Below, one piece after another: positions 7,861-25,472 of a stretch of DNA of 30,632 nt. Source of the stretch: Candidatus Hermodarchaeota archaeon (lineage in GTDB: Archaea > Asgardarchaeota > Lokiarchaeia > Sigyniarchaeales > SOKP01); contig JBHLLP010000041.1 of assembly GCA_048885525.1 (NCBI GenBank), positions 1 through 30,632 on the forward strand, read 5' to 3'. A program made the translations under genes and the position numbers. Every line of letters starts with the position of its first letter. Within the stretch, counting starts at the first letter, position 1. Under the pieces are notes generated by a model. It saw only the letters and a program-made list of their open reading frames with translations. It was not told where the DNA came from and made no database searches.

Positions 7861-8826
7861 ATGATTCAAATGCCAGATAAAGATTTTATAGAAATTTTAA
7901 AAAAAGTAAATCAATTCGAAATAAAAAATAATACAGATATTGTTGAATTGATAAACTCTTTAAAAGAAACAGGATTTAATGCAAAAAGGTTAGCTCTAGC
8001 TTGTGAAATCTACAACGAAATGATAAATAATCCAGATTGCGTTAAATTTTTTGGATTAGCTGGGGCGCTTGTTCCAGCTGGAATGCAAAGAGTAATTTAT
8101 GATTTTATAAAAGAAGGGTATATTGATATATTAGTTACCACAGGCGCAAATTTAACCCATGATCTTGCAGAAGCTTTGGGATATAAACATTTACAAGGAG
8201 ATATTGAATCGAGAATAACGAATGATAATTTTTTACATAAGGAACAAATCAACAGAATTTATGATGTGTTCATGCCTAATAAAGTATATGAGGGCATTGA
8301 AGATTTTGTATCAAAATTAGACATACCAGATAAAAAGATGTCTGTTAGTTCTTTTTTAAGATTTCTTGGAGAACAATTACCAAAAGATTCAAATTCAATT
8401 TTGAGAATATGTTATGAAATGCAAATTCCAATATTTTGCCCTGCTTTTACAGATTCGGGTTTAGCATTACAATTAGGATTTCATCATCAAAAAATAAACT
8501 TAAATCATTTTGCTGATATGCTAGAAATGGTTAATTTATCATGGGATGCTAAAGTAGCTGGTATATGCATTGTTGGAGGTGGTGTGCCTAAAAATTTTAT
8601 TATGCAATCATTACAATTCAGTCCAAACTCCGCTGCCTATGCTATTCAAATAACCATGGATCGCCCTGAGCCAGGAGGATTGAGTGGAGCTACTTTAAGA
8701 GAAGCTATCTCATGGGGTAAAATTAATGAAAAAGCAAAATTTTCAACGATAATTTCTGATGCTACAATAGCCCTACCTATAATATTATGGTTTTTAAAAA
8801 AATCTAATAATAAAACAAAATATTAG
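7861..8826 (+). CDS. dys: Deoxyhypusine synthase
   Basis: Motifs TGFNA, VTTGANLTHD, PAFTDSGL, GGGVPKN, GGLSGATLREAISWGK (catalytic Lys) and DATIALP. Confidence 0.95.
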   Translation: MIQMPDKDFIEILKKVNQFEIKNNTDIVELINSLKETGFNAKRLALACEIYNEMINNPDCVKFFGLAGALVPAGMQRVIYDFIKEGYIDILVTTGANLTHDLAEALGYKHLQGDIESRITNDNFLHKEQINRIYDVFMPNKVYEGIEDFVSKLDIPDKKMSVSSFLRFLGEQLPKDSNSILRICYEMQIPIFCPAFTDSGLALQLGFHHQKINLNHFADMLEMVNLSWDAKVAGICIVGGGVPKNFIMQSLQFSPNSAAYAIQITMDRPEPGGLSGATLREAISWGKINEKAKFSTIISDATIALPIILWFLKKSNNKTKY

Positions 8827-9284
8827 AATACTCCTTTTAATTTTTGATCAATAGTTTGTGTATCGCTTCCAAAAATTTTATCAAGTTTTTTTTTAAAATC
8901 CTTGAACTGAGATACTTCAGAAAGATTTTTTCCTGAATTCAATGTTTTAAATTCTTTTGAAACTTGTTTCAATAAGGGTTGAATGATTTTACGAATATAT
9001 TTTTCAATTCTTTTTTCCTTATCTAAAATAGCATAAGAAATTATAAGTTCAGGTTCAAAGCTATCCTCAGCAGTAATTTCATCATCAGTAAATGCAATAA
9101 CGAATTTCTTTCCCTCAAAATATTCTACTATATCTTTAGAAAAGGTTGATTGAGCAAAATTTAAAATTGCTGTGAGTAAACCGCTTCTCAGATCGGTATC
9201 AATTTTACCTTTTGAGGTTTTATGATAACTTTTTTTTACTAAAGTAAATCCTCTAAATAACAAGCCTGCTTCTCGAACAACCAT
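8823..9284 (-). CDS. Longin-like domain protein (Asgard type)
   Basis: Two N-terminal strands, then the helix DTDLRSGLLTAILNFAQSTF, three strands and two C-terminal helices: the longin beta-beta-alpha-beta-beta-beta-alpha-alpha pattern. Confidence 0.6.
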   Translation of the reverse strand: MVVREAGLLFRGFTLVKKSYHKTSKGKIDTDLRSGLLTAILNFAQSTFSKDIVEYFEGKKFVIAFTDDEITAEDSFEPELIISYAILDKEKRIEKYIRKIIQPLLKQVSKEFKTLNSGKNLSEVSQFKDFKKKLDKIFGSDTQTIDQKLKGVF

Positions 9285-9461
9285 TTTTAAGAATATTAAA
9301 TTAATTTATCTAATTTTTGAGGATTATTTTTCTTAATTTGTTATTACTTCAATATTTTAATTATAAAAGTTTTTAATAATAAATCCTTTGATTATCCAAC
9401 TAGTTGATTTAACTTTAGATATTTAATAAGGAATATTATTTATCAAATATTTTTTTTAGAT

Positions 9462-10652
9462 ATGATTACTAGGGAAAAAATTAAATTGTGTGCTGAAAAT
9501 ATTACCAAAAGTGTAAATATGAAAAAAGAAGGCGAATTCATTATAATAAGAGGAGCTCACTATTGTCAGGACCTCCTAGAAGAAATAGGTTTAAATGTTC
9601 TTAGAAAAGGAGGAATCCCGCATATTTATTCCGTTAGTGATTATTTTGAGGAATCAATGTGGCAAGATGAACAAATTAAAGCGAAAACATTACAAACAAC
9701 GCCACTACATTATCTGGAGATGATTAAAAAAAGTGATGCTTATATAGTAATTGAGTATCCTGAAGATCCTTTAATTCGTAATAAAGCACCAGAAGAAAAA
9801 CTAAAAGCTTATTTCAAAGGAATTGCTCCATTACGAGAAGTGTTGTATGGACATAAGGAAGAGTATGCTCCTGGAAAGAAATGGTGTTATGCTGCTTGGC
9901 CATCTAGGAAAGCGGCAGATTACTACAATATTGATTATGACTTATTTGAAAAATTTATTTTAGATGGAATGTGTATTCAATCAGAAGAATTACATAAAAT
10001 CACTCAGAATGTGGGAAAATATTTTGAAAATGCTAAAAAGGTTTATATCAAGGATAACTTTGGCACAAATTTTTGGGTTTCAATAGAAAATCGCCCTAAA
10101 ATCCTTGATGATGGTATAATTTCAGATGAACAGATCGCTATCGGAGATTTAGGGGGAAATTTACCCGCTGGTGAAGTTTTTTTCCCTCCACATGAAAAAC
10201 AGGGAGAAGGGAAGATATTTTGTCCATTGACAAAGGAAAGATATTATTCAGAAGAAATCTTGAAAAACGTAGAATTAGTTTTCAAAGATGGAAAATTAAT
10301 GATTGATAAAGTTTCTGCAGATTCCAATATTGATAAACTTTTAACAAGTTTTAAACTAAGGGAAGAACTTGATAAGGAAAGTAATGTAAAAGAATTAAGA
10401 ACTTACAATATTGCAGAGCTTGGTATTGGATGTAATCCAATAATTACTAAAGCAATAGGATATATACTTACAGACGAAAAAATTGGAGGAAGTGTTCATG
10501 TAGCATTTGGATCAAACAATCATATGGGAGGTACTTCGGTATCACAAATGCATTGGGATTTTGTTACAGCACCAGAAGCGAATATAACAGTAGAATATAT
10601 AGATGGTACTGAAAAACGTATAATGGAGAATGGAAGATTAACTGAAGAATAG
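9462..10652 (+). CDS. Aminopeptidase, peptidase family M29 (AmpS/AmpT-like)
   Basis: Metal-ligand motifs NLPAGEVF, ELGIGCNP, DEKIGGSVHVAFG and SQMHWD. Confidence 0.9.
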   Translation: MITREKIKLCAENITKSVNMKKEGEFIIIRGAHYCQDLLEEIGLNVLRKGGIPHIYSVSDYFEESMWQDEQIKAKTLQTTPLHYLEMIKKSDAYIVIEYPEDPLIRNKAPEEKLKAYFKGIAPLREVLYGHKEEYAPGKKWCYAAWPSRKAADYYNIDYDLFEKFILDGMCIQSEELHKITQNVGKYFENAKKVYIKDNFGTNFWVSIENRPKILDDGIISDEQIAIGDLGGNLPAGEVFFPPHEKQGEGKIFCPLTKERYYSEEILKNVELVFKDGKLMIDKVSADSNIDKLLTSFKLREELDKESNVKELRTYNIAELGIGCNPIITKAIGYILTDEKIGGSVHVAFGSNNHMGGTSVSQMHWDFVTAPEANITVEYIDGTEKRIMENGRLTEE

Positions 10653-10663
10653 TTATTATATAT

Positions 10664-11173
10664 TTAATACTTTATGAATTCTTTCTGAAATAATTCTTCT
10701 AGAAATTGAATAATTTTCTCTAAGACTTTTTCTTTAAATTTAATACGATCTGTTTTGAAATTGTATTTAAGAATAGATGTCTCTTTTTTAGTCGAGATGC
10801 CTATAAACACAAGTCCCACTGGTTTTTCTGGTGTTCCTCCAGTTGGTCCAGCAATACCACTAATACCAATTCCTATATCAACATTTGAAAGAAATCTTAT
10901 ATTATTAGCTAGATCTTTAACGACATTTTCTGAGACAGCACCAAATTTTTCAATTGTTCCCGGATCTACATTGAGTAGATCTATTTTTGCTTGATTACTA
11001 TAACAGACGATTCCTCTCTCAAAGACTTTTGATGCTCCAGAAATATTTGTAAACATATGTGATATGAAACCCCCTGTACAACTTTCAGCGATAGAAATCT
11101 TTAGGTTTACCTCTGAAAAATCGTTAATGAGTTTTTCAATTCTTTTTAATATATCCATAATTTCAATTACCAT
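10664..11173 (-). CDS. pncC: Nicotinamide-nucleotide amidohydrolase (CinA C-terminal / PncC)
   Basis: Motifs IAESCTGG, SGAS..F..G.V.YSN.AK, GAVSE and GIAGPTGGTPEKPVGLV. Confidence 0.92.
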   Translation of the reverse strand: MVIEIMDILKRIEKLINDFSEVNLKISIAESCTGGFISHMFTNISGASKVFERGIVCYSNQAKIDLLNVDPGTIEKFGAVSENVVKDLANNIRFLSNVDIGIGISGIAGPTGGTPEKPVGLVFIGISTKKETSILKYNFKTDRIKFKEKVLEKIIQFLEELFQKEFIKY

Positions 11174-11622
11174 TAAATGTTAAATTTTTTCCCACATGAA
11201 CCGCAAAATACTGTCCCCTCATTTAAAGATTTACCGCAATAAGGACAATGCCATTTTGTTATTAATTTTGGAGAAGGAGTTAAAGTTTTATAAATTTCTG
11301 ATTCTTTTTCTCCAAATGGTTTATAATCTAGATTTTTTTCAAAAGTTTTATCAAAACATCTTGGACAATAATTTTTCTTCTGAAATATATAATAGATAAG
11401 ATATGGATTTATAATCAAGAAACCCCACATAAAGAAGATAAAAAGAAAAACCTCTGAAAAAATTGAAAAAGAAAGAATAGAGATTATGGTAAATATAATA
11501 AACATCATTATAGCAAAAAATCCAAACATTTTAATATTAAATCTTGGTCGAGTAGGAAACACATTCATGCAACAACTTTTACAAAAAGCCATTTCGTTTA
11601 TATTTTGAACCATAAATCTCAA
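11173..11622 (-). CDS. LITAF-like Zn-knuckle membrane protein with C-terminal zinc ribbon
   Basis: CKSC, a long hydrophobic hairpin, YCPRC, then CPYCG-x9-CGSCG. The start may be ATG 11592 (MAFCKSC). One-base TAATG overlap with pncC. Confidence 0.6.
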   Translation of the reverse strand: MRFMVQNINEMAFCKSCCMNVFPTRPRFNIKMFGFFAIMMFIIFTIISILSFSIFSEVFLFIFFMWGFLIINPYLIYYIFQKKNYCPRCFDKTFEKNLDYKPFGEKESEIYKTLTPSPKLITKWHCPYCGKSLNEGTVFCGSCGKKFNI

Positions 11623-11753
11623 TGTTAAAATGAATTGTTATTATATATAAATTAATAACAAATAAAATTAAATAAAAAAATATTATTGTATACTTTTGAT
11701 AAATATTGCATTATAAACAGAAATAAATAAAAATTAATGACCGAGTGATTTAA

Positions 11754-12293
11754 ATGGGAAAAAATAGTACTGCTAAAGGATTCGTATTTAAAATAACTGT
11801 AATTGGGAATGGTGCTGTCGGGAAAACCTCCTTAATTAAAAAATATACTCAGGGTAGTTTTCAAAAAGATTATATTAAAACATTAGGTGCCCAATTTTCC
11901 AAATATGATGAAGAAATTGAGGGGGATAATTGTAAATTGTTTTTTTGGGATATTGCAGGGCAAGATGAGTTTAATTTTATGCGTCCTACGTTTTATAAGG
12001 GGAGTAAGGCTGCAATTATTGTATTTTCTCATACTGATGAAGATAGTTATGACAATATTGTAGATTGGCATGAAGATATTAAAAAATACACTGGTGAGCT
12101 CCCTATTGTTTTGTTTGGTAATAAAACGGATTTAGTTGATGAAGATAATTTAGATGATGAAAAAGTAACAGAATTAGTAGATGAAAGGAACTTTCTTGGT
12201 TATTATAAGACATCTGCAAAGACGGGGCAAGGAGTATTCGAAGCATTTCAAGCAATAATAAAAGAGTTATACAACAAATATAAAGAAGATTAG
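11754..12293 (+). CDS. Rab-like small GTPase (Ras superfamily), no prenylation motif
   Basis: G1 GNGAVGKTS, switch I YIKTLG, G3 WDIAGQ, G4 NKTD, G5 TSAK. Confidence 0.93.
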   Translation: MGKNSTAKGFVFKITVIGNGAVGKTSLIKKYTQGSFQKDYIKTLGAQFSKYDEEIEGDNCKLFFWDIAGQDEFNFMRPTFYKGSKAAIIVFSHTDEDSYDNIVDWHEDIKKYTGELPIVLFGNKTDLVDEDNLDDEKVTELVDERNFLGYYKTSAKTGQGVFEAFQAIIKELYNKYKED

Positions 12294-12296
12294 AAA

Positions 12297-12596
12297 ATGT
12301 ATGATGATATCAATCAAGGATATCCAAAGATATTATTTTTCTCTTCAAATCACTGTGCTCCGTGCAAACCAGTTGAAGAAATGTTAAAGAAAATAAATAT
12401 TTCCTTGTTTGGTAAAAAATTATTAATAGAGAAAATTTCAATCGACCTTGAAGAAAATCGTAAATTTACTCAGGAATATCATATTACTTCAGTTCCCACA
12501 TTGATTATAGCAGATAAAAAAATATCTGTAAATATTCAAGAAGAAGAAATCATAGATGCAATTCTTTATGCATTTATATCTTCAGTTAAAATATAA
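12297..12596 (+). CDS. Thioredoxin-fold protein
   Basis: CAPC active site and cis-Pro motif ITSVPTLII. Confidence 0.88.
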   Translation: MYDDINQGYPKILFFSSNHCAPCKPVEEMLKKINISLFGKKLLIEKISIDLEENRKFTQEYHITSVPTLIIADKKISVNIQEEEIIDAILYAFISSVKI

Positions 12597-12650
12597 TTAA
12601 AAAATAAAGAAAAAAAAATTTATAAAAAACCAAAAATAAGGTGAAATTTA

Positions 12651-13130
12651 ATGGATAGGCAATTACTCTCCAAAATTCTTGCCCAAATGAGAAAGAATTT
12701 AAAAGAAGGCAAAACAATAGGAGATATGAAAGTTGGAGCCTTATTAGCTTTAGGTCATCAATTAGAAGCTATTTTTTACTATTTAGGACATGAATTAGGA
12801 ACTATCTTAAAAGTTAAGCCTGTAAAAGAAATAACTCAAATTCCAGATGAATTAAAACGAATTATTGATGAATTCAATCTTGGAGCAGCTGAGATAACTG
12901 AAAGTACCGATGAAATAATACAATTAAAACTAAAAGATCATTCATCTATCAAAGACTTAATAAAAAAAGGAATTAAAACAACAGGAAGCTTTTGCTCGTT
13001 TGAAGCGGGATTATTAGCAGGAGTTGTAGAAAAGCTAAGTGATCGTCATTGTTTTGCCCAAGAACTTGGATGTAGTTTACAAACAGGGCAGAATTATTGT
13101 GAATTTATGCTCGTATTCCAAAAAGATTAA
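12651..13130 (+). CDS. Stand-alone V4R (4-vinyl reductase) domain protein
   Basis: IFYYLGHELG, FNLG and FCSFEAGLLAG...ELGC...G.NYCEF, with the typical V4R Cys/Glu metal ligands. Confidence 0.85.
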   Translation: MDRQLLSKILAQMRKNLKEGKTIGDMKVGALLALGHQLEAIFYYLGHELGTILKVKPVKEITQIPDELKRIIDEFNLGAAEITESTDEIIQLKLKDHSSIKDLIKKGIKTTGSFCSFEAGLLAGVVEKLSDRHCFAQELGCSLQTGQNYCEFMLVFQKD

Positions 13131-13381
13131 CTAATTTTAGTATTTTTTTGCTAATACTTTTTTTAAAAAAATTTTTATGCTAATAAAGGTTAAATTTTTA
13201 ATTTTACAGTATTATTAGAAAATTATTAATAAGTATAAACTATACTATGAATATAAAATAAAATTATGAGTTTATTACCATTTGATCCTTCATTTTATTG
13301 ATTTAAAAACTATAAAACATAATTTAAAAAAAAAATTAAATTTAATTACTCAACAAAAAAACCACTTTAATAAGAAGAGAT

Positions 13382-13915
13382 GTGAGGAGATTGGAACATA
13401 AATATATAATAAAGATTTGTTTACTGGGGGAAGCGAATGTAGGGAAAACATCATTAGTATATAGATTTATTGAAAATAAATTTAGGGAAAATTATAAATC
13501 AACCCTAGGTGTTAACCTTCTTAGGAAAGATTTGGAATTAAAAAAGTATGGTTTTGTTTCTGCCCAAATATGGGATCTAGGGGGTCAAGAGTCATTTAAA
13601 TCTCTTAGAAAGCTCTATTTGGAAGGTGCAAATGGAGCTCTCTTAGTTTACGACATGACTGATGAAAAAACTTTTGAAAAGCTTGATGAATGGGTTCAAA
13701 GTTTCAGAGAGGCTAGAATTGATGCTCCAATAATATTAATAGGAAACAAATCTGATTTGGAGAGTCAAATTAAAATAACCGAAAGTAAATCAAAAAAGTA
13801 TGCAAATACAAATAATTTAGGAATGGTAATTACTTCCGCTAAAACTGGTCTTAATGTTGAAGAAGCATTTATTGAGTTAACTACCAAAATTATAAATCAG
13901 ATTTCAGATGATTAA
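13382..13915 (+). CDS. Rab-like small GTPase, no prenylation motif
   Basis: G1 GEANVGKTS, YKSTLG, WDLGGQ, NKSD and TSAK. GTG start. Confidence 0.92.
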   Translation: MRRLEHKYIIKICLLGEANVGKTSLVYRFIENKFRENYKSTLGVNLLRKDLELKKYGFVSAQIWDLGGQESFKSLRKLYLEGANGALLVYDMTDEKTFEKLDEWVQSFREARIDAPIILIGNKSDLESQIKITESKSKKYANTNNLGMVITSAKTGLNVEEAFIELTTKIINQISDD

Positions 13916-14040
13916 AAATCTTTAAAAAGGTTTTTAGCTAATTTCTTTTCTTTCATTAATTTTTGTAAAATATTTTTTTTAGTATTTTAATAACTATCTA
14001 AATTTGGAGATTTGAGCTTTATTCTTTTTTAAATCTACCA

Positions 14041-14052
14041 CCTTTATAAAGG
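14041..14052 (+). promoter_or_regulatory. Candidate TATA box (within palindrome CCTTTATAAAGG) upstream of tbp
   Basis: TTTATAAA at 14043-14050 inside a perfect 12-bp palindrome, about 95 nt before the tbp ATG. Confidence 0.35.
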
Positions 14053-14146
14053 AAGATTTATTTAAATAAAATTAACAAAAAAACCTCGATATAAAGAATA
14101 TTTTAATTTTACAAATTTCAAATCACAATTATCACTTAATATTATC

Positions 14147-14842
14147 ATGTCAGATGAAGAATTTGAAGATGAATTTGATGAGTTTGAAGATGAAGACGAA
14201 TTCGAAGAGGAAGAAGAAGAAGAAGGAGAAGAAGGGGAATATGACTATGAGACTGACTTAGATTACAAAATAGAAAATGTTGTAGCAACAGTAACAGTAG
14301 AAATAACAGAAAAGATAGATCTCAACCAAATAGCAAGAAGACATGCCGAAGTTGAATATAATCCAGAACGTTTTCCCGGACTTGTAATGCGAATTGAAAA
14401 ACCACGTGCTACAATATTAATATTTTCTACGGGAAAAATGGTTGTTACGGGCCTTAGGCAAGCAGCAGAAGCAGAACGAGTTGTTGATAAGGTTGTAAAG
14501 AACATAAGAAAAGCAGGAATAAAATTATCTAATCCAGAAATTACTATTCAAAATATAGTAGCTTCGGGAGATCTCCATACTAACATTGATCTTAATATGG
14601 CAGCTATTGTAATGGAATACGCAATGTACGAACCAGAAGTATTTCCAGGTTTAATTTATCGTATGCAAGATCCAAAAACAGTATTTCTAATTTTCTCGAC
14701 AGGCAGGATTGTATGCACAGGTGCGAAGCAAAAAGAAATTGTGAGAGATGCTGTTTTAAAATTAAATCAACAAGTTAGAGAATTAGGAGTAGCAAGAAAG
14801 GATATTAGTGATTCAGATTATCAAGACATTACTTTTATCTAA
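14147..14842 (+). CDS. tbp: TATA-box binding protein with acidic N-terminal extension
   Basis: Two repeats: IENVVAT...EYNPERFPGLVMR...LIFSTGKMVVTG and IQNIVAS...YEPEVFPGLIYR...LIFSTGRIVCTG. Confidence 0.98.
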   Translation: MSDEEFEDEFDEFEDEDEFEEEEEEEGEEGEYDYETDLDYKIENVVATVTVEITEKIDLNQIARRHAEVEYNPERFPGLVMRIEKPRATILIFSTGKMVVTGLRQAAEAERVVDKVVKNIRKAGIKLSNPEITIQNIVASGDLHTNIDLNMAAIVMEYAMYEPEVFPGLIYRMQDPKTVFLIFSTGRIVCTGAKQKEIVRDAVLKLNQQVRELGVARKDISDSDYQDITFI

Positions 14843-14878
14843 TTTATTTTTATCCTTTTTTGCTTTATAACTTTTTTT
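14843..14878 (+). terminator. Oligo-T archaeal terminator candidate after tbp
   Basis: Several T6-T7 runs right after the stop, between convergent genes. Confidence 0.4.
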
Positions 14879-14923
14879 CCAAATTAAATAAGCCTATACC
14901 TACTGGAACTATTAAAAAGTATT

Positions 14924-15262
14924 TCAGATCGATTTCTTTGTGTTAATTGCTTTTATAGAATTAATGTATTCATTATAAAGTACTTCAAGCAATTTATATT
15001 CTTTAGCTTTGTTAAGTGCTAATAGAAACAGTTGATTGAGTGGTTTTTTGTTATTAATATCATATATATCATCTTGGAGACCTATTTTATCACTATATTG
15101 GTCCAAAAAATTACATATAATATACCTATTTTCATTTCTCATATTTATTTTATTTAGTGCTCCAAACATTCTTAGAATTAAAGGTGTTTGAAATCTAATT
15201 TTATTATGGTGCAATGATTGAAATACTTTAAGATATTCATTTCGTTTTAAGAAAACCGACAT
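14924..15262 (-). CDS. Hypothetical protein (helical, 112 aa)
   Basis: ATG-initiated ORF filling the gap, with TTTATAAA upstream. No recognised motif. Confidence 0.6.
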   Translation of the reverse strand: MSVFLKRNEYLKVFQSLHHNKIRFQTPLILRMFGALNKINMRNENRYIICNFLDQYSDKIGLQDDIYDINNKKPLNQLFLLALNKAKEYKLLEVLYNEYINSIKAINTKKSI

Positions 15263-15348
15263 AAATAAAGAATTTAAGCAATCCTTATTGAAAGGAAGTG
15301 TTACGAGGATATTATCTTTTATAAACTTGTCAAAAAGCTCTAGAGAAG

Positions 15349-15633
15349 TTAATATTCAAACATATAATCGAATTCTTTAAATTCTTTAGTAGCTTGTGAG
15401 AATTCATGTTGAACTTTTTCAACCCGAGCATGTTTAGGTCCAAGTTTTGAAAATTCTAAAAGCTCGTTTAATTTATCTTTTGGACCTTCAGCTTCGATAT
15501 AAACGGTTCCATCTGGTAAATTTTTAACATAACCAGTTAAACCTAATTTTCGTGCAAATTTCCGAGTAGTATAACGAAAAAATACGCCTTGTACATATCC
15601 AAATACTTTGATTTTTATCCTCAATTCATTCAT
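15349..15633 (-). CDS. acyP: Acylphosphatase
   Basis: Signatures VFGYVQGVFFR and GYVKNLPDGTV..EAEG. ATGA overlap with the upstream gene. Confidence 0.95.
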   Translation of the reverse strand: MNELRIKIKVFGYVQGVFFRYTTRKFARKLGLTGYVKNLPDGTVYIEAEGPKDKLNELLEFSKLGPKHARVEKVQHEFSQATKEFKEFDYMFEY

Positions 15634-16265
15634 ATCTTCAAATAGTAAAAATCTTTTTCAGAGTTATATCCTATAACTTCATTTTTTACAAGTGTTTCAA
15701 GAACATTAATCAACCATCTCTTATTTGTTTTTATCACTGTTTCAAAATCTTTAACACTTGCTGTGTCTTTTATCGCTAATAGAAATAGTATTTTACTTTT
15801 CACTGATAAGTGATTTGATTTTATAATATAGTTAAATTTTACTTCATAGTCATATTCTCGGGTTTTTAAAAAAGCGACTTCATTGCTTAATTTTATTATA
15901 ACTTCATCAGTGGTTCGGAAGGCATCTAAACTAATGAGAAACATACTTTCCAAGTGTTCTTTGAGTTTTTGTTCTTTTGTTTCTTTTTCTATTTCTTGAT
16001 TAAATTTTTCAAGAATTTCTAAGTAATCATTGCCATCATCATATCTGCTTAAAACTAAAACAAGTATCATTTCCTTATTTTCATTGTAATAAGACACCGA
16101 GTTCCAATTTTTCTCTTCTGTAATAATATAAGATTCAGTAAAGTTATGGGATATTGTTATTTGTTGAACTACTGGATCTGGGATCTCTAGATCTTCTGGG
16201 TATTTTAAATAAATTGTTCCCCCCTCAACTACATCCCAGCGAATAAGAAAAATTCCATTTGGCAT
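15630..16265 (-). CDS. uDENN/longin-like domain, coiled coil and winged-helix protein
   Basis: N-terminal GIFLIRWDVVEGGTIYLKYPEDL resembles the uDENN/NPR2 start. C-terminal KSKILFLL...SVKDFETVIKTNKRWLINVLETLVKNEVIGYNSEKDFYYL fits a wHTH. Confidence 0.55.
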   Translation of the reverse strand: MPNGIFLIRWDVVEGGTIYLKYPEDLEIPDPVVQQITISHNFTESYIITEEKNWNSVSYYNENKEMILVLVLSRYDDGNDYLEILEKFNQEIEKETKEQKLKEHLESMFLISLDAFRTTDEVIIKLSNEVAFLKTREYDYEVKFNYIIKSNHLSVKSKILFLLAIKDTASVKDFETVIKTNKRWLINVLETLVKNEVIGYNSEKDFYYLKI

Positions 16266-16477
16266 TAATTCTACGTTGGCATCTAATTTGATTTTTAATA
16301 ATTAAATAATAGTTTATTATTAAAAATTTAATTCTTATTTACCTAATTAATCAATTATGATATCGTAATATATATGATATATATTTGAAGGCAAGATAGT
16401 CCAATTAGACCTATCTTAAAGAGATTGCCTAAAAAAATAAATAATACAAAATTGATTTATTACATAGAGGATATTTT

Positions 16478-16753
16478 ATGAATGTATACTATGTATATAT
16501 TTTAGAAGTTTTGGCTAAATCTGGAAAAAGAAGTTATTACACTGGATACACTAACAATCTCTATAGGAGATGGCACGAACATCGTAATGGTACGGGAGCT
16601 AAATTTTGTCGCGGTAAAAAAAAAATTGAGTTAAAATATTTTGAAACTTATACAAATAGAAAAGAAGCAATCAAAAGGGAATTGCAGATAAAAACATTTT
16701 CGAGAAAAGAAAAACGAGAATTAATAAAGAGTATAAGTGATAAAATATTGTAG
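16478..16753 (+). CDS. GIY-YIG nuclease family protein (UPF0213-like)
   Basis: YYVYIL, YTGYTNNLYRRWHEHRNGTGAKF and EAIKRELQIK..SRKEK. Confidence 0.92.
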   Translation: MNVYYVYILEVLAKSGKRSYYTGYTNNLYRRWHEHRNGTGAKFCRGKKKIELKYFETYTNRKEAIKRELQIKTFSRKEKRELIKSISDKIL

Positions 16754-17575
16754 TTGATTACGTTCTTGAACAATAAAAATTTTTTAATCTGTTTAGTAGG
16801 ATTACCTGCCTCGGGTAAAAGCACATTTGCAAAACTATTAAAATTTGCAATTGAAAAAAAATATAATAATTCGAAGGTAAGGATCATTGATCCTGACATA
16901 ATTAGACTGAATTTGACTGCAAATAAGTTTGATTATAAAAAAGAACATATTATTAGAAAAGAGAACCTTAAAAAAATAAAAACTGAATTAGAGAAAGGTT
17001 ATATTGTAATTAGTGATGATTTAAACTATTACTCCAGTATGAGACACGATTTAAAAGATATTGCTGATACTCTTGGCATTGATTTTTTCATTATTCATAT
17101 AGCTACTCCCATTGAAATTTGTATGAATTGGAATGTAAAAAGAGGTGAACCTATTCCAAACATGGTTATAAAAAGAATCTATGAAAGATTTGACAATTTT
17201 AATAGATATAAGTGGGATGTTGCTGATGCGATATATGATCTTTCACAAATGATTGAGCTAAATCCATTTGTTGAAGATTTTCTAGAGAAGGTCCTTGTAA
17301 AAGAATATGATAAAAAATGTGAAATTAAATCTATAGAAATGAAAAAAAGAACTTCAAATTTAGACAATGAAAATCTAGATAAAATAACAAGGATTTATGT
17401 AGGAAGACTTTTGCATCAATCCAGTTATTTACCATTAAAAAAGAGAATTATTAAACTAAGAAAAATTTTTGTGAAACAAAATAAAAATAGAACATTTAGT
17501 GAATTAGAGATATCAAAGTCATTTAGATTTTTTTTAGAAAAAAATTTAAACGTCGAAATAAATGAAGATCTCTAA
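16754..17575 (+). CDS. pstK: L-seryl-tRNA(Sec) kinase (PSTK) / KTI12-like P-loop kinase
   Basis: LVGLPASGKST, DPDIIR, ISDDLNYYSSMRHDL, WNVKRGEPIP and YKWD, with a C-terminal helical domain (LDKITR). TTG start at 16754 or 16766. Confidence 0.75.
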   Translation: MITFLNNKNFLICLVGLPASGKSTFAKLLKFAIEKKYNNSKVRIIDPDIIRLNLTANKFDYKKEHIIRKENLKKIKTELEKGYIVISDDLNYYSSMRHDLKDIADTLGIDFFIIHIATPIEICMNWNVKRGEPIPNMVIKRIYERFDNFNRYKWDVADAIYDLSQMIELNPFVEDFLEKVLVKEYDKKCEIKSIEMKKRTSNLDNENLDKITRIYVGRLLHQSSYLPLKKRIIKLRKIFVKQNKNRTFSELEISKSFRFFLEKNLNVEINEDL

Positions 17576-17667
17576 TAAATAGTTTATTATAAAAATTAAA
17601 GAAAAAGAAAATAAACCATCATTTACTTATTTTTTATAGAGTTAAAATTATATTTTTTAAAAATTAG

Positions 17668-19968
<2,301 letters not shown>

Positions 19969-20096
19969 CTAACATTTCTATTATCTATTTTTGATCTACC
20001 TACATATGGTATATAAAATCCCTTATTAATTTTGTAAAATTTTATTAGAGACATTATCTAATTATTATTATTCAAATAATTTAAGAGAGTTTTGAA

Positions 20097-21299
20097 ATGA
20101 ATGATATAAAAGTAGATTGGAAAGGTCATGTGAAAAAATATCAAGCAGCGATGGATGAATTAAACCTTGATTTTTGTGTTCTTACTCGTGTTAAATCGAT
20201 TACGTATCTAACTGGTTGTTTCGTACCTTGGAAAAGTTATATATTTCTCCCGAAAGAAGGTGCTGGAGAACCAATCTTATTTACTGTTTTATTAGATACC
20301 GAAAGAGTAAAAACAGAAGGACACTTGGAAGATGTTCAGGGCTGGGGTCCTCTTAAAGGTTTCTATATTGAAAAAAAACTCCAAAAGGAAGCTAAAAAAT
20401 CTGGCTTATATAAAATAAAAGGTTCCCCACCTAGAATTGGAGTTGAATTAGGACTCGATATCTGTGTGACAGGTCAAATGTTATCTTATTCAGAGGCTCA
20501 ATTATTAAAACAAGTGTTTCCAGGGTGCGAATTGGTGGATTTTAATGAAAAAACTGAAAGGATACAATTTATTAAAGAACCAGAAGAAATCATCTTATTG
20601 AGAAAAGCAAGTGAAATCACGGATATAGGTCAAATGACTGTAAAGACAGCATTAGAAGAACGCCCTTTGGGTAAAATTTTCACAGAAAATGAGATAGCGG
20701 GAATTGGGACGTTAGCAATGAGGAAAGCTGGAAGTAATTATGAATGGACGTTTACTGGGAATCAAGAGATCGGTTCAGGATACCGTGCGAGTTGGACTTT
20801 TAATGGGTGTACACCTGCAACAAATAAAAAAGTTAAAGAGGGTGAATCGTTATTAGTAGATCTTCACAGTGAATTTGGATGTTATCTCGGAGATTTAAGT
20901 CATAATTACATCCTTGGTAAATATCCTTCAGAATTGAAAGCCTTTAATGATGTATATGAACAGCTTTGTTATACTCTTATCGATAATATGTATCCTGGAA
21001 ACACATTTGAAGATTGTTATCAAGAAGTAAGAAAGGTTGCTGAAAAAGAGGGATATGAAAATGATTTATTCTTTGGAATTGGTCATGGGATAGGGTGTAT
21101 TGGAAATGAATCATGGCCAGTTGTAATCCCCGGGAAAGAATGGGGTCCGATGGTCTTTGAGGAAAATATGGTTGAAATAGCAGCAATAGTATTTAATCGT
21201 CCCGGACTTGGAGGTCTTCGACTTGAGTCACCAACCCTGGTTACAAGTAAAGGCGCCGAAGTACTTCCCAAAACGCCATTCGAAGTTGATTATGTATAG
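20097..21299 (+). CDS. Peptidase M24 / creatinase-like (Xaa-Pro peptidase family), divergent active site
   Basis: Creatinase-like N-domain (ITYLTG), IKEPEEI, VDL..Y.GD, GHGIG and GGLRLE..LVT..GAEVL. Confidence 0.85.
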   Translation: MNDIKVDWKGHVKKYQAAMDELNLDFCVLTRVKSITYLTGCFVPWKSYIFLPKEGAGEPILFTVLLDTERVKTEGHLEDVQGWGPLKGFYIEKKLQKEAKKSGLYKIKGSPPRIGVELGLDICVTGQMLSYSEAQLLKQVFPGCELVDFNEKTERIQFIKEPEEIILLRKASEITDIGQMTVKTALEERPLGKIFTENEIAGIGTLAMRKAGSNYEWTFTGNQEIGSGYRASWTFNGCTPATNKKVKEGESLLVDLHSEFGCYLGDLSHNYILGKYPSELKAFNDVYEQLCYTLIDNMYPGNTFEDCYQEVRKVAEKEGYENDLFFGIGHGIGCIGNESWPVVIPGKEWGPMVFEENMVEIAAIVFNRPGLGGLRLESPTLVTSKGAEVLPKTPFEVDYV

Positions 21300-21455
21300 A
21301 TTTGATTATTTCATCTTTAGAATAATTAAATTTAAGTTCTTTTAACAAAAAATTCCTAAATGCTATGGAAACATCTAAATCTTAAAAGGAAACATTTTTT
21401 CAATTTATTGAATCTAAAAATCTATTTAAAATACCATGATACTCATTTCTTTTGA

Positions 21456-21698
21456 GTAAAGTGCCAAGAACTCAATGAAAAAGCAATTAAATTTATGAAA
21501 ATTCAATCAACTGGTCCAACAATTGCTTTTAATACAATTAAAAGATTACTTAGAGAATATTTTAATGCCGGTTTAGAAAAATCAGAAAAATTATTATTAG
21601 AAATAGTTCCTAAACTTTTTGAAACAGAGGATATCAAAATTGGCATTGAATCTTTTAAAAGAAAAGGACCTGGGAAAGCAATCTTTAAAGGTAAATAA
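21456..21698 (+). pseudogene. C-terminal remnant of an enoyl-CoA hydratase/crotonase gene
   Basis: ELNEKAIKFMKIQSTGPTIAFNTIKRLL...LFETEDIKIGIESFKRKGPGKAIFKGK matches crotonase C-terminal helices (TED.K.G...F.....P.F.GK). The frame is closed by TGA at 21453 and the catalytic domain is absent. Confidence 0.7.
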
Positions 21699-21765
21699 TC
21701 TTATTACCATATTATTTTTATTTTAATTTGAGATACGTAAAATGTAGGAGTTATAGGAGTCTTTT

Positions 21766-22923
21766 CTATAATTTAAGAACAAATTTTTCAATTCTGTTCA
21801 TCGCTTCCGTAAGTTTTTCTATCTCAGTAGCATATGATATTCGTATCATATTATCTGAAAATGACCCGAATATATTTCCAGGTACGATGGCTACAGCTTG
21901 TTCTTTCATAATTCTCTGTGAAAATTGAGAACCAGTCAAATTAAATTTTTCAGTTGATGGCATTACATAAAATGCTCCTTGTGGCTTAATAAGATCAAAC
22001 CCAATTTCTTTTAATCTCCTATATACTAAATTTCGTCTTTTATCGAAACTCTTCCAAATTTCCTTAAAAAAATCAGTTCCCATTTTATAAGCTTCAATAA
22101 AACCATATTGAGCAGCATGATTAGTTCCAGCTACTGTATATTGATGGAACTTTTCCATTAAATCAATTATATTTGATGGAGCAACCACATAACCTAATCT
22201 GAATCCAGTAGCAGAGAACAATTTTGAAATAGCATTTACAGTCACAGTTCGTTCAAACATACCATTTAGAGAAGCTGGACTTATATGTTTAAGACCATCG
22301 TAGATATAATTTTCATAGACCTCATCGGTGATTAGATATAAATCATGATTAATAATAATATCTATAATTTTGGTTAATTCTTTTGGATTAAGAGCATGAC
22401 CAGTTGGATTATTTGGAGAATTGATAAGCATAGCCTTAGTTTTATTTGTAACTGCTTTTCTTATTCCTTCAATATTAAGGCTAAAATCTTTGTTTCTCTC
22501 AACTTCTATTACCTTCACACCAAAAAAGGAAGCACAATAAAAATAGGAGACAAAGTTTGGTGAAGAAATGATCATTTCATCCCCAGGATTAAATAAAGAT
22601 GCAAATGCTAGAGTTATTGCTTGACTAGCTCCATTAGTAACAATAATATTTTCTCTCCAATTAATGGGGATCTTATTAACATCAGCCATCTTTTTTTCAA
22701 TCAATTTTAATAACTCCGGAACACCTCTAGTAGGGGCATACATTGTAATATTTTTTTTCAATGCATTAATGTTACCTTGTATTACAGGTGCAGGTGTATG
22801 AAAATCTGGCTGTCCAATCCCTAGACTAATAACATCTGAACGTTCTAAAGCAAGATCAAATAAATCTCTAATAGCTGACTTTGGAGCTTTAGATAATCTA
22901 TGTGAAGTCTCTTTCATGATCAA
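21766..22923 (-). CDS. Class I/II PLP-dependent aminotransferase (aspartate/aromatic type)
   Basis: Motifs LGIGQPDF, VTNGASQA, NSPNNPTG, TDEVYE, SKLFSATGFRLGY and IRISYA. Confidence 0.95.
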   Translation of the reverse strand: MIMKETSHRLSKAPKSAIRDLFDLALERSDVISLGIGQPDFHTPAPVIQGNINALKKNITMYAPTRGVPELLKLIEKKMADVNKIPINWRENIIVTNGASQAITLAFASLFNPGDEMIISSPNFVSYFYCASFFGVKVIEVERNKDFSLNIEGIRKAVTNKTKAMLINSPNNPTGHALNPKELTKIIDIIINHDLYLITDEVYENYIYDGLKHISPASLNGMFERTVTVNAISKLFSATGFRLGYVVAPSNIIDLMEKFHQYTVAGTNHAAQYGFIEAYKMGTDFFKEIWKSFDKRRNLVYRRLKEIGFDLIKPQGAFYVMPSTEKFNLTGSQFSQRIMKEQAVAIVPGNIFGSFSDNMIRISYATEIEKLTEAMNRIEKFVLKL

Positions 22924-23004
22924 TTCTTTTTATTTGATTATATTAAAAGTTTGCTTGTTACTATACTGATACAAAAAAGAGTTTTTTGAGGTTATTAAAA
23001 TTTT

Positions 23005-23559
23005 TTAAATATATACCCCATGATTACTCAAAATTTCATGTACTAAAAGAGAAAAAGCTTCTTCGATATTTTCTCCTAATTTGGCACTTGTTTCTATGAA
23101 GTGGCTAGCTTTGATTTTTTTAGCTAATTCTTTTCCTCTTTGGGTGGGGATTACTCTCTGATCTTTTAAATCACTTTTATTCCCAATTAATATAAATGCT
23201 CCTTTTTTCTTTACGTGTTTTTTGAAGTCTCGTAGCCATCTATTATTAATGTTCTCTAACGTATTATATCGTGTTACATCATAAACAAGTAGAGCACCTT
23301 GACACCCTTGAAAGTACATACTACGAACTACTTGATATTTTTCTTGACCCGCCAAATCCCACATGATTAATCTTACTTTTGTACTATTCAAGATTACATC
23401 TTTACGTACAATATTTGCTCCTAATGTAGGCTTGTAATCCTCATTAAATGAGCCTTCTACAAACTGACTTATCAAAGATGTCTTTCCTACAGCAGCATCT
23501 CCGAGTATTACTATTTTATACACAAATTCACGATCGAGATTAGCTTCTTCTAAAGTCAT
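23005..23559 (-). CDS. Rab-like small GTPase, no prenylation motif
   Basis: G1 GDAAVGKTS, YKPTLG, WDLAGQ, NKSD and ETSAK. Confidence 0.93.
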   Translation of the reverse strand: MTLEEANLDREFVYKIVILGDAAVGKTSLISQFVEGSFNEDYKPTLGANIVRKDVILNSTKVRLIMWDLAGQEKYQVVRSMYFQGCQGALLVYDVTRYNTLENINNRWLRDFKKHVKKKGAFILIGNKSDLKDQRVIPTQRGKELAKKIKASHFIETSAKLGENIEEAFSLLVHEILSNHGVYI

Positions 23560-23686
23560 TATGCAATTTATTATTTTGTTGTAAGTCTATTTAATATTTT
23601 ATTTCTAAAATGATAAATGAGATTTTTATATTACAAATATTAGGATTCCTTCTATAAATTATACTAATATAATCTTCATCAAAATA

Positions 23687-24253
23687 TTATTTAAGACTTT
23701 TCTTAATTTTTAATTTAACTAAAAAACTATTATGAGTTGGATCGTTTACATCTTCTGCTTCAGTTTCATAGATAACCATTTGTTCTGATGGTAATGATTT
23801 CTGTAAAGAATGAACTAAAAACCCGATAAATAAGTCGCAAGGAACTCCAATCTCAGAACAGAAGATACACCTTTCAACTTGAATAGTAATTATATTTTCA
23901 TTATTACTTAAAATCTCAACGTTCCAATCTGTTATAATAGACGTATTAATTTCATTTATTATCTCTTCAAATTTTAACCCAAAAGGGAATAAGTAAAAGG
24001 AAAATTTCTTACCGATTTCATAGAGTAGTTTTGTAGATTCATATAATAAGCAATTCTGAGCAGAAATGATTTTCTTAAATGAGAAATAATCTAAAGTATC
24101 TTGTGGGTTTATATCCTTTATATCTTTTATATGCATCATTTCTGCTTCTCTTAGAATTGATTTCATTCCATCATAATCAAGGATGTCATAATATGCTTGT
24201 AGTAATGCTATGACTACCTTGTTCTTTACGAATCCTTTATAATCTCCAATCAT
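23687..24253 (-). CDS. V4R/H-NOX-like domain protein
   Basis: NK....LL.A..DIL..DG.KSIL N-terminus, LLYEIGK and IQVERCIFCSEIGVPCDLFIGFL, typical of long 4VR proteins. The distal Cys pair is missing. Confidence 0.65.
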   Translation of the reverse strand: MIGDYKGFVKNKVVIALLQAYYDILDYDGMKSILREAEMMHIKDIKDINPQDTLDYFSFKKIISAQNCLLYESTKLLYEIGKKFSFYLFPFGLKFEEIINEINTSIITDWNVEILSNNENIITIQVERCIFCSEIGVPCDLFIGFLVHSLQKSLPSEQMVIYETEAEDVNDPTHNSFLVKLKIKKSLK

Positions 24254-24309
24254 TTCTGTTAAAAATGATGTTTTATTTTAGTAATTTTTCTAATTTAATT
24301 AATTTTTTT

Positions 24310-24870
24310 TTAATTTAATTCGATATTAACTCCACTTTTATTTAAAATATATAAAATTAAGCTCTTAAATACCATTTCTACATTTTCTCCATATTTAGCA
24401 CTTGTTTCAATAAACTCAGCTGCATTAATTTTTTGAGCTAATAATTTCCCATGTTCGGATGATACATTAATTGAATCCTCTAAATCTAATTTGTTACCAA
24501 TCAAATTAAAAACTCCATTGGGTTTACCAAATTTTAAAAAATCCTCAAGTCATTTTGAAGTTATATGTTTGTATGTTGAATATCGTGTTTTGTCGTAAAC
24601 AAATAATGCTCCTGAACATCCTTGAAAAAACATCTTGCGTGTTAACTCATATTTAGCTTGACTAGCGATGTCCCACAAGAGAAGACGAATATTAGAATTA
24701 ATCTCTTCAATATATTTGTCTTTTGTAACGATATTTACACCCAAATTAGGCTGGTAATTCTCACTAAATGAATCAGTGATATATTTATCAATTAAAGATG
24801 TTTTCCCTACGGCAGGATCTCCTAGTATCGCTATTTTTAATGCTCATTCTCTCTTTTTAATTTCTCCCAT
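24310..24870 (-). pseudogene. Full-length Rab-like GTPase frame interrupted by two in-frame TGA codons
   Basis: Single frame from ATG 24870: MGEIKKRE*ALKIAILGDPAVGKTS...YQPNLG...WDIASQ...HITSK*LEDF...LIGNKLD...ETSAKYGENVE...ELN*. TGA at 24846-24844 and 24552-24550. Joins track ORFs 24550..24744 and 24310..24504. Confidence 0.85.
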
Positions 24871-24887
24871 TAATCATTAACCTACTC

Positions 24888-25316
24888 TCATATATTTAAA
24901 AGTAACAAATCGAATTGAGGATCATTAGTTCGATAAAATTTTTTATCAGTTTCAAATATACTAACCTCCCCAGTAACTGAAACGATACTCGGTTTACCTA
25001 AATGCCCACCTATTACACTATAATCTTTTCTTCCTAAAGATACATGCAAATGAATAACTGGTTCATCGTCCTTATAAGTTACATTTCCTATACACGTAAT
25101 CAATTCAACATTTTCATTAAAAGTTTCTATTTTATAGTTTTTAGAATCAATTTCAAAAAACCCAATTGTAAATTTTTTCAGCGCTCCAATAGCGTTGATA
25201 ATTCCAGATTTAATATTATGTTTTTTTACTATATTAATTATAGAATCCATTAAATCCTCATCAGGCTCTACTTTTCCAATAATTATTCGTTTGCTTTTAG
25301 TTTCAAAACTCTTCAA
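24888..25316 (-). CDS. PPC domain / DUF296 (AF0104-like) protein
   Basis: EPDEDL, AIGAL, ELITCIGN, IHLHVSLG, GGHL and VTGEV. Confidence 0.9.
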   Translation of the reverse strand: MKSFETKSKRIIIGKVEPDEDLMDSIINIVKKHNIKSGIINAIGALKKFTIGFFEIDSKNYKIETFNENVELITCIGNVTYKDDEPVIHLHVSLGRKDYSVIGGHLGKPSIVSVTGEVSIFETDKKFYRTNDPQFDLLLLNI

Positions 25317-25343
25317 TTTAACACACTTGAATGGTTTAAATAT

Positions 25344-25472
25344 TTAATTTTCAATCCTTAAATTTTCCAAAACCTTGTCAATTGATTTCTTGAATGCTTC
25401 TTCTACATTATCTCCATATTTGGAGATAACGTATAAACCCAGTTTTAAAACGATAAACTCGTCTCCAAACAT
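25344..25472 (-). pseudogene. C-terminal remnant of another small GTPase gene
   Basis: 42-codon frame MFGDEFIVLKLGLYVISKYGDNVEEAFKKSIDKVLENLRIEN*. KYGDNVEEAF matches the G5/alpha5 region of its neighbours (SAKYGENVEMVF, SAKLGENIEEAF). Confidence 0.6.
25404..25433. repeat. Quasi-palindrome with 13-bp arms, 1 mismatch and a 4-nt loop
   Basis: TACATTATCTCCA-TATT-TGGAGATAACGTA. Confidence 0.8.

Follow-up and report, generated by a model that had tools for sequence, protein, structure and literature searches.

Lokiarchaeia encode dozens of Rab-like GTPases. The regulators of these proteins are hard to assign, because in the cultured MK-D1, according to Tran et al. 2024 (PMC10933270), operons that join a GTPase gene to a roadblock, longin or TRAPPC3 gene are not the general arrangement. 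Here we describe a gene pair, V2–G3, and a three-gene unit, G1–thioredoxin–V1, in which a protein of the V4R fold is encoded close to a Rab-like GTPase. Both lie in a 30,632-nucleotide stretch of DNA from Candidatus Hermodarchaeota archaeon (Lokiarchaeia; contig JBHLLP010000041.1 of assembly GCA_048885525.1, positions 1 to 30,632), which was analyzed as a whole and is called the window below; the source genome is 99% complete.

Several described systems resemble these units in part. The stand-alone V4R proteins (PF02830), represented by MJ1460, the sensor domains of PoxR and DmpR, MsvR and BchJ, have the same fold as V1 and V2. In contrast with them, V1 and V2 carry no fused AAA+ or helix-turn-helix (HTH) output domain and are in fixed genetic linkage with a Rab-like GTPase; in V2, moreover, the N-terminal helical part is H-NOX-like, and the zinc ligands are partly decayed in the window's family. 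The TRAPP core (Bet3, Trs31 and Trs33 with the longins Bet5 and Trs23) and the TRAPPC3 of Thorarchaeia (7YH2, 7YH3; PMC10933270) share a homologous fold and an association with Rab-type GTPases. Within TRAPP it is mainly the longin Trs23 that carries the Rab, and the nucleotide pocket is opened by the C-terminus of Bet3 (PMC10152722). V2–G3 differs in that no longin accompanies it constantly, the V4R protein itself provides the predicted contact, the GTPase tail is unprenylated, and the pair occurs in our sample only in Lokiarchaeia. MglA–MglB is likewise a prokaryotic two-gene unit of a soluble GTPase and its operon-encoded cognate regulator, but there the partner is a roadblock protein rather than a V4R fold, and the GTPase is MglA-like rather than Rab-like. 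The V4R, TRAPPC3 and small-GTPase families are already known (PMC2253512, PMC10933270); no description of either unit, or of a bacterial link between V4R and MglA/MglB, was found in the searchable literature, with most subscription journals outside its scope. On balance, we favor the view that V2 and G3 form a Lokiarchaeia-specific, probably direct partnership in which V2 would be an effector-type partner of the GTPase.

Conservation of the V2–G3 gene pair

The V2–G3 end of the window comprises the following features (aa, amino acids; AF2, AlphaFold2; pLDDT, predicted local distance difference test):

23005–23559, minus strand: G3, 184 aa, intact Rab-like GTPase (PF00071, E 1e-53), the conserved partner downstream of V2
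23687–24253, minus strand: V2, 188 aa, V4R/H-NOX-superfamily protein (AF2 pLDDT 90.9), predicted direct partner of G3
24310–24870, minus strand: G4, pseudogenized duplicate of G3, with TGA at 24846 and 24552 and an altered DxxG motif
24888–25316, minus strand: PCC/DUF296 protein (PF03479, E 3e-32), between the remnant and G4
about 25344–25424, minus strand: C-terminal remnant of a third G3-clade GTPase, matching an intact GTPase that precedes the PCC gene in relatives

V2 is present in 100 of 121 Lokiarchaeia genomes and in all six sampled families, and a co-oriented GTPase gene, G3, follows it directly in 76 of the 77 loci that could be tested. The order is kept in all nine testable loci of the five other families, at V2 identities of 28–34%, and in all of seven further Helarchaeales-type contigs, where the gap between the two genes ranges from −14 to 30 nucleotides (nt). 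As a control for synteny, 26 distinct pairs of neighboring genes from Helarchaeales loci were compared with the window's genome; these loci were centered on V2, V2's neighbor itself being unselected. Seven pairs still adjoin there, namely five ribosomal or RNA-polymerase operon pairs, RtcB–archease, and V2–G3. The GTPases linked to V2 are compatible with a single clade, the tree constrained in this way being 3.3 log units better (approximately unbiased test, p 0.58); this is not proof of one. The trees were quick ones, and that used for the constraint excluded five long-branch paralogues. With the same queries, neither V2 nor G3 was found in MK-D1 or in two more genomes of its family (G054, G038). 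An ancient and tight tie of particular V4R-fold genes to particular non-prenylated Rab-like GTPases is supported, and a lineage-specific V4R–GTPase partnership in Lokiarchaeia is well supported; V2 and G3 may also be co-transcribed. In many Helarchaeales the pair sits directly upstream of the S13-S4-S11-RpoD ribosomal operon (L084–L087, L319, L321, L323), a neighborhood that is a possible hint of growth-linked expression.

The linkage concerns specific orthologous groups. The genome holds about 71–73 small-GTPase genes. Such a gene adjoins 4.0% of the other genes, and 8 of 3248 genes are flanked by two co-oriented ones. A broad profile detected about 14 genes of the V4R superfamily, three of which abut a GTPase gene (P ~0.014). 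When V1 and V2 are set aside the figure is about 1 of 11 (P 0.36), which indicates that V4R genes in general are not GTPase neighbors, whereas specific orthologous groups are. The single-genome statistic is weak, and the real evidence is conservation across genomes. Of 151 Asgard genomes, 145 carry V4R genes. Among 69 such genes sampled outside Lokiarchaeia, a single one directly adjoins a GTPase gene and 6 have one no more than two genes away, about the level of chance; the sample consists of high-scoring genes, is biased to strong PF02830 matches, and includes some loci with short flanks. The original prediction had offered adjacency of V4R and GTPase genes across Asgard genomes as its own check, and the outcome is divided: linkage to a GTPase gene holds for particular Lokiarchaeia groups (V2–G3, and G1–thioredoxin–V1 in 46 of 46 testable loci), and adjacency is near chance in the sample from elsewhere. 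V2 itself is confined in the same manner. A profile search of 118 non-Lokiarchaeia Asgard genomes gave no match at E 1e-9, and the best 120 matches of the V2 profile comprised only proteins of Lokiarchaeia type. A plasmid search returned BchJ as its only result.

The sole GTPase–V4R order seen outside Lokiarchaeia is in locus L125 (G143:C51:9685–12855), where a 475-aa V4R protein is encoded 6 nt behind an N-terminally extended GTPase. In Helarchaeales, proteins of 555–590 aa combine an N-terminus that appears by eye to be KaiC/RecA-like with V4R domains (L300, G010:C1:198008–201301, and L301); in L300 a divergent GTPase-domain gene comes next.

All three intact GTPases of the window, G1, G2 and G3, match PF00071 above its cut-off (E 1e-44 to 1e-53) with the five nucleotide-binding motifs, G1 to G5, intact, and the best match of the G3 profile in the PDB is a Thorarchaeota Rab (7EZB). 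They lack the hypervariable tail with prenylation cysteines that marks eukaryotic Rab proteins, and no C-terminal cysteine prenylation motif occurs in the last five residues of G1–G3 or of 38 short GTPases of the genome, in agreement with the original description of these proteins as non-prenylated.

That description had also counted three intact Rab-like genes, one interrupted copy, one remnant and two V4R genes, all of which we confirm. It read from them a repeated GTPase–V4R–GTPase layout. The counts stand, but a thioredoxin gene splits G1 from V1 and the PCC/DUF296 gene splits the remnant from G4. The G4–V2–G3 sandwich is a tandem duplication with decay. G4 is 52% identical to G3 and nests inside the G3 clade; its two TGA codons fall on Trp codons of intact orthologues, and its DxxG motif has a G-to-S change. 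The remnant is 60% identical over 25 aa to the C-terminus of the pre-PCC GTPase of relatives (E 2e-7), the intact copies of which likewise nest in the G3 clade. A GTPase copy lies upstream of V2 in just 26 of 73 loci, and only the window's family has the PCC/DUF296 gene upstream of V2. Recoding of TGA in G4 as Trp or selenocysteine was considered and rejected, because an in-frame TGA occurs in only 1 of 71 GTPase matches, the DxxG motif is altered, and the neighboring copy has been deleted to a remnant. An assembly error behind the stops is unlikely, since contigs that were assembled separately in the same study carry both stops unchanged, although those runs may be the source samples. G4 and the remnant would then be dispensable tandem copies of G3. 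A sandwich design that recurs is thus not supported: G4 is a duplicate limited to part of the lineage, and the GTPase gene G2, which follows V1 in the window, does so in none of nine loci of the MK-D1 family.

Fold of V1 and V2 and the predicted V2–G3 complex

V1 and V2 are distant homologues (about 20% identical), each with a helical layer on a four-stranded sheet, the arrangement of the V4R/Bet3/H-NOX superfamily. Both models match structures of that superfamily, which upholds the shared V4R/Bet3 fold assumed at the outset. V1 matches PoxR (Z 15.0; root-mean-square deviation, rmsd, 3.2 Å over 137 residues), DmpR (Z 14–15) and MJ1460 (Z 14.1), with TRAPP subunits and Thorarchaeia TRAPPC3 below these at Z ~12. 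The best match of V2 over its whole length is H-NOX (Z 11.1, rmsd 4.0 Å, 166 residues), followed by DmpR and PoxR (Z 8.4–8.6) and then by TRAPP subunits (Z 7.3–7.8). H-NOX proteins are heme sensors; in V2, however, the proximal His and the YxSxR motif of H-NOX are absent from the invariant and near-invariant alignment columns, and heme binding by V2 is for this reason unlikely. Against PF02830, V1 scores 25 bits with a cut-off of 31 and its MK-D1 orthologue 31.3 bits; V2 itself gives no match, while its Helarchaeales orthologues reach 46–59 bits (E 6e-16 for one of them). Matches of V2 orthologues to the MsvR and BchJ models fall below the cut-offs, the MsvR model NF053755 (cut-off 220) giving 33 bits over the V4R part only. 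Pfam scans found no HTH domain in V1 or V2 and no match to the Bet3 family PF04051 in V1, V2 or their orthologues. Of the candidate zinc-site residues of V1, C115, C134, C141 and C150 are kept, and the first CxxC is lost in the window's family; those of V2 (C129, C132, C139, H174) are not universal among its orthologues. V2 ends in a basic tail. The last residue of most V1 orthologues is Asp or Glu.

A structure model of two V2 copies with one G3 reached a score of 0.69, as against 0.31 for the best of three controls, and when G3 was kept and V2 was swapped for an unrelated protein the score was 0.00. Of the structure predictions proposed earlier as a check, the V2–G3 pair thus passes against its controls. 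At least 84% of contacts are shared between model runs, and partner pLDDT values are 81–82. One V2 copy is predicted to touch G3 through residues 24–36 and 68–79 of its N-terminal helices, and the modeled contacts on G3 (13, 15, 45–52, 65, 70, 75, 78, 80–85) fall in switch I, the interswitch and switch II, a surface of effector type. Aligned to Rab11, I50 and Y82 of G3 occupy what we take to be two positions of the Rab hydrophobic triad. Of the 12 invariant residues of V2, 5 lie within its 19-residue interface (p 0.003), whereas its candidate zinc cysteines are not universal. Changes following loss of a partner appear on both sides of the predicted interface. In the genus without V2, a G3-like copy has changed 7 of 17 conserved interface residues as compared with 13 of 77 others (p 0.034, from a single event), and in a V2 paralogue without a GTPase neighbor L69, L70 and E79 are changed.

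From these observations we infer that V2 would bind G3, a soluble Rab-like GTPase, as its dedicated partner, with the N-terminal helices of V2 docking on the switch and interswitch surface. It would most likely act as an effector-type reader or a sequestering partner of one nucleotide state, probably the GTP-bound one, rather than as a TRAPP-type exchange factor, and its C-terminal V4R half may relay a metal or small-molecule signal.

The same linkage and the same model apply if V2 binds G3 yet acts catalytically, as a stand-alone guanine nucleotide exchange factor (GEF), GTPase-activating protein (GAP) or factor resembling a GDP dissociation inhibitor (GDI), possibly gated by a ligand. GEFs, GAPs and GDI likewise bind the Rab switch and hydrophobic-triad surface (PMC5902227), TRAPP touches the central sheet, switches and P-loop of Ypt1 (PMC10152722), and two invariant acidic residues of V2, D28 and E79, lie in the predicted interface. 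We nevertheless consider a catalytic role unlikely: no contact with the P-loop or nucleotide pocket is listed in the model, the predicted V2 interface contains no invariant Arg or Gln finger, G3 retains its own catalytic Q72, and the basic tail of V2 does not resemble the pocket-opening C-terminus of Bet3.

A slightly less probable explanation is that the paired proteins are co-regulated within one pathway, or their genes frozen in synteny, without direct contact, the model score reflecting a generic stickiness of Rab switch surfaces. About 11 of the 14 V4R genes of the genome and 68 of the 69 sampled elsewhere in Asgard archaea do, after all, lack a GTPase neighbor, GTPase genes are dense enough to give 4% background adjacency, and G3 has outlived the loss of V2 in one genus. 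However, V2–G3 survives across orders in the company of only ribosomal operons and RtcB–archease, the substitute for V2 scored zero, and each side of the interface has changed residues where its partner was lost.

Several points weigh against a direct, effector-type V2–G3 partnership. Binding is predicted by a model and is not a measurement. In the calibration, 58 of the 80 solved pairs and 2 of the 110 mismatched ones attain the mark applied to the score; this calibration is only rough for our job, which differed from it in its own alignments and its two V2 copies. The controls were unrelated proteins and not paralogous GTPases, and so say nothing on specificity for G3; the model was built without nucleotide; and the G3 surface concerned is also one to which GEFs, GAPs and GDI bind on Rabs (PMC5902227). 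The conservation of the V2 interface is in part a circular argument, since the alignment is itself an input to the model. The V2–G3 gap in the window's family is often 100–250 nt, and the pairing is not obligatory, since G3-clade genes are retained in one genus that lost V2. Finally, the complex model covers V2–G3, while G1–thioredoxin–V1 rests on gene linkage.

The G1–thioredoxin–V1 unit and its surroundings

The second unit and the genes around it are as follows:

11754–12293, plus strand: G1, intact Rab-like GTPase (PF00071, E 2e-44), first gene of the unit
12297–12596, plus strand: thioredoxin-fold protein with a CxxC motif (PF13098, E 4e-8), starting 3 nt after G1
12651–13130, plus strand: V1, 159 aa, Cys-containing V4R protein (PF02830, E 2e-5; AF2 pLDDT 90.7)
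13382–13915, plus strand: G2, intact Rab-like GTPase of a separate clade, a loosely linked fourth gene
8823–9284, minus strand: possible longin-like protein, an Atlas lead only, judged outside both modules
15630–16265, minus strand: unconfirmed uDENN/longin-like N-terminus with a C-terminal winged helix, probably outside both modules

V1 is present in 104 of 121 Lokiarchaeia genomes but in two families only; with these queries no orthologue was found in families f3–f6. The thioredoxin gene lies directly upstream of V1 in all 49 loci, and G1 precedes thioredoxin–V1 in all 46 testable loci of the two families, co-oriented in 45 of them. G2, which forms its own GTPase clade (support 100), is a looser associate: it lies downstream of V1 in 26 of 27 loci of the same genus and in 8 of 10 from other genera of the family, and in the MK-D1 family it is sometimes found upstream of G1 instead. 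The cultured MK-D1 carries all four genes, G2 included (WP_147663611.1, WP_147663613.1, WP_147663615.1 and WP_147663616.1), among which WP_147663613.1 corresponds to G1, WP_147663615.1 to the thioredoxin and WP_147663616.1 to V1. In such a unit the thioredoxin would most likely control the cysteines of V1, with G1 as the linked switch, and gating by redox state may be its mode of action. That V2–G3 and G1–thioredoxin–V1 are independent units of a GTPase plus a partner, lying close together through regional synteny, with V2–G3 the older of the two, is the best explanation of their arrangement.

Thioredoxin and V4R domains also meet in other settings. Proteins of 480–550 aa in which a thioredoxin-like domain is fused to two V4R domains occur in several Asgard families outside Lokiarchaeia (L104, L109, L111, L118, L119, L124, L126, L127, L131), which fits a thioredoxin–V4R partnership. 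In the window's own genome, contig C51 (2932–7415) holds a second thioredoxin gene directly before two further V4R-superfamily-like genes, which encode 170 and 490 aa, and two genes later comes a roadblock-like gene; a pair of 157 and 490 aa is found in MK-D1 as well.

The original prediction had joined both V4R genes with the longin-like and uDENN-like genes into one system, and this is not supported. The gene at 8823–9284 belongs to an Atlas cluster in which Fuz_longin_1 is found on 22% of members (score 0.88), so that its label stands as a lead; it has no Pfam or PDB match, five paralogous matches in the genome, and lies on the strand opposite to G1 and V1. Among long loci, it is close to V1 in 6 of 10 from the window's family and in none of 10 from the next. 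For the gene at 15630–16265 the uDENN label is unconfirmed, and the C-terminus is instead a winged helix, with matches of orthologues to Pfam families of winged HTH/MarR type (best E 5e-7). For neither gene was a longin match found in Pfam or the PDB, and hhalign gave a probability of 18%. The 15630–16265 gene keeps near V1 in two families, within 1.4–7 kb in 14 long loci and nearly always on the opposite strand, and travels mostly beside a GIY-YIG/kinase/CDC48 block. Neither of these two genes stands alongside V2–G3 in the distant families. These neighbors look like local synteny.

Other observations in this region concern transcription and gene decay. The genome has two genes for TATA-binding protein, at window positions 14147–14842 and on contig C2 (88983–89612), the former with a long acidic N-terminus and sitting after G2 in the window's family. 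A scan for sigma-70 promoters and terminators gave 16 sites against 17.8 expected and is uninformative for an archaeon. Between the Xaa-Pro peptidase and aminotransferase genes, positions 21330–21700 of the plus strand appear by eye, with no search made, to hold a decayed C-terminal fragment of enoyl-CoA hydratase type.

Relation to TRAPP and to other V4R genes

It had been proposed that V4R proteins, longin and uDENN proteins and Rab-like GTPases form a possible precursor of TRAPP–Rab coupling, read here as an exchange-factor complex ancestral to that coupling in eukaryotes. V4R and Bet3 are homologous (PMC2253512), V1 resembles TRAPP subunits at Z ~12, the V2 profile matches Thorarchaeia TRAPPC3 weakly (E 0.009), the uDENN-like gene lies within 1.4–2.2 kb of V1 in five MK-D1-family loci, and Asp or Glu ends most V1 orthologues. 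It is chiefly a longin subunit that carries the Rab of TRAPP, however (PMC10152722), and neither unit has a constant longin gene, as judged by gene linkage, a trans-encoded longin being possible; nor does the V2–G3 model show a Trs23-type longin seat or the opening of the pocket by a Bet3-like C-terminus. V1 and V2 are closer to the PoxR/MJ1460 and H-NOX folds, and eukaryotic Bet3-family chains align to V2 only from model residue 46–58 onward, which places half of the predicted G3-binding patch N-terminal of the Bet3-aligned region. A genome-wide search for PF04051 was blank, a weak negative, as control genomes gave no positive signal either. In several Asgard families and in MK-D1, two small membrane-protein genes are followed by a 270–300-aa protein with a V4R domain and an N-terminus that by eye is longin-like, a conserved trio; at ten such loci (L141, L148, L156–L159, L161, L164, L283, L284) no GTPase gene adjoins. 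Longin-like–V4R fusions of other Asgard archaea, which of all architectures come nearest to TRAPP, keep company with small membrane-protein genes and not with GTPases. Because the conserved linkage is confined to Lokiarchaeia in our sample (1 of 69 adjacent elsewhere, V2 in 0 of 118 genomes) and the longin-like and uDENN-like neighbors look like local synteny, the proposal of a TRAPP ancestor is poorly supported, and we regard it as very improbable. This distribution instead argues for a Lokiarchaeia-specific invention and tempers claims of TRAPP ancestry.

The third V4R gene of the genome that adjoins a GTPase lies on contig C2 (17702–19457). The GTPase encoded immediately before it combines an Arf-like domain with an N-terminus that is longin/uDENN-like. 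This pair is kept in 27 of 29 testable loci of the same family, some of which add a Rab-like gene downstream.

A broader reading, which we put forward tentatively, is that V4R-fold proteins are an unrecognized class of direct small-GTPase partners, recruited on at least three separate occasions in Lokiarchaeia (V1 to G1 by way of a thioredoxin, V2 to G3, and the third V4R protein to the longin-like–Arf GTPase), with V2 gating or reading the nucleotide state of G3 in response to a ligand. In that case a Bet3-superfamily protein would work on a Rab-like switch without longins, as a functional parallel of TRAPP and not its ancestor.

V2–G3 and G1–thioredoxin–V1 are specific, conserved exceptions to the rule, drawn from MK-D1, that GTPase genes are not placed in operons with their candidate regulators. 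V2–G3 offers a pair of two proteins with a predicted interface and named residues, and G1–thioredoxin–V1 exists in the cultured MK-D1. Together they make the question of partners for Asgard Rab-like GTPases testable with small soluble proteins. If the predicted binding of V2 to G3 is true, a Bet3-superfamily fold can engage a Rab-type switch alone.

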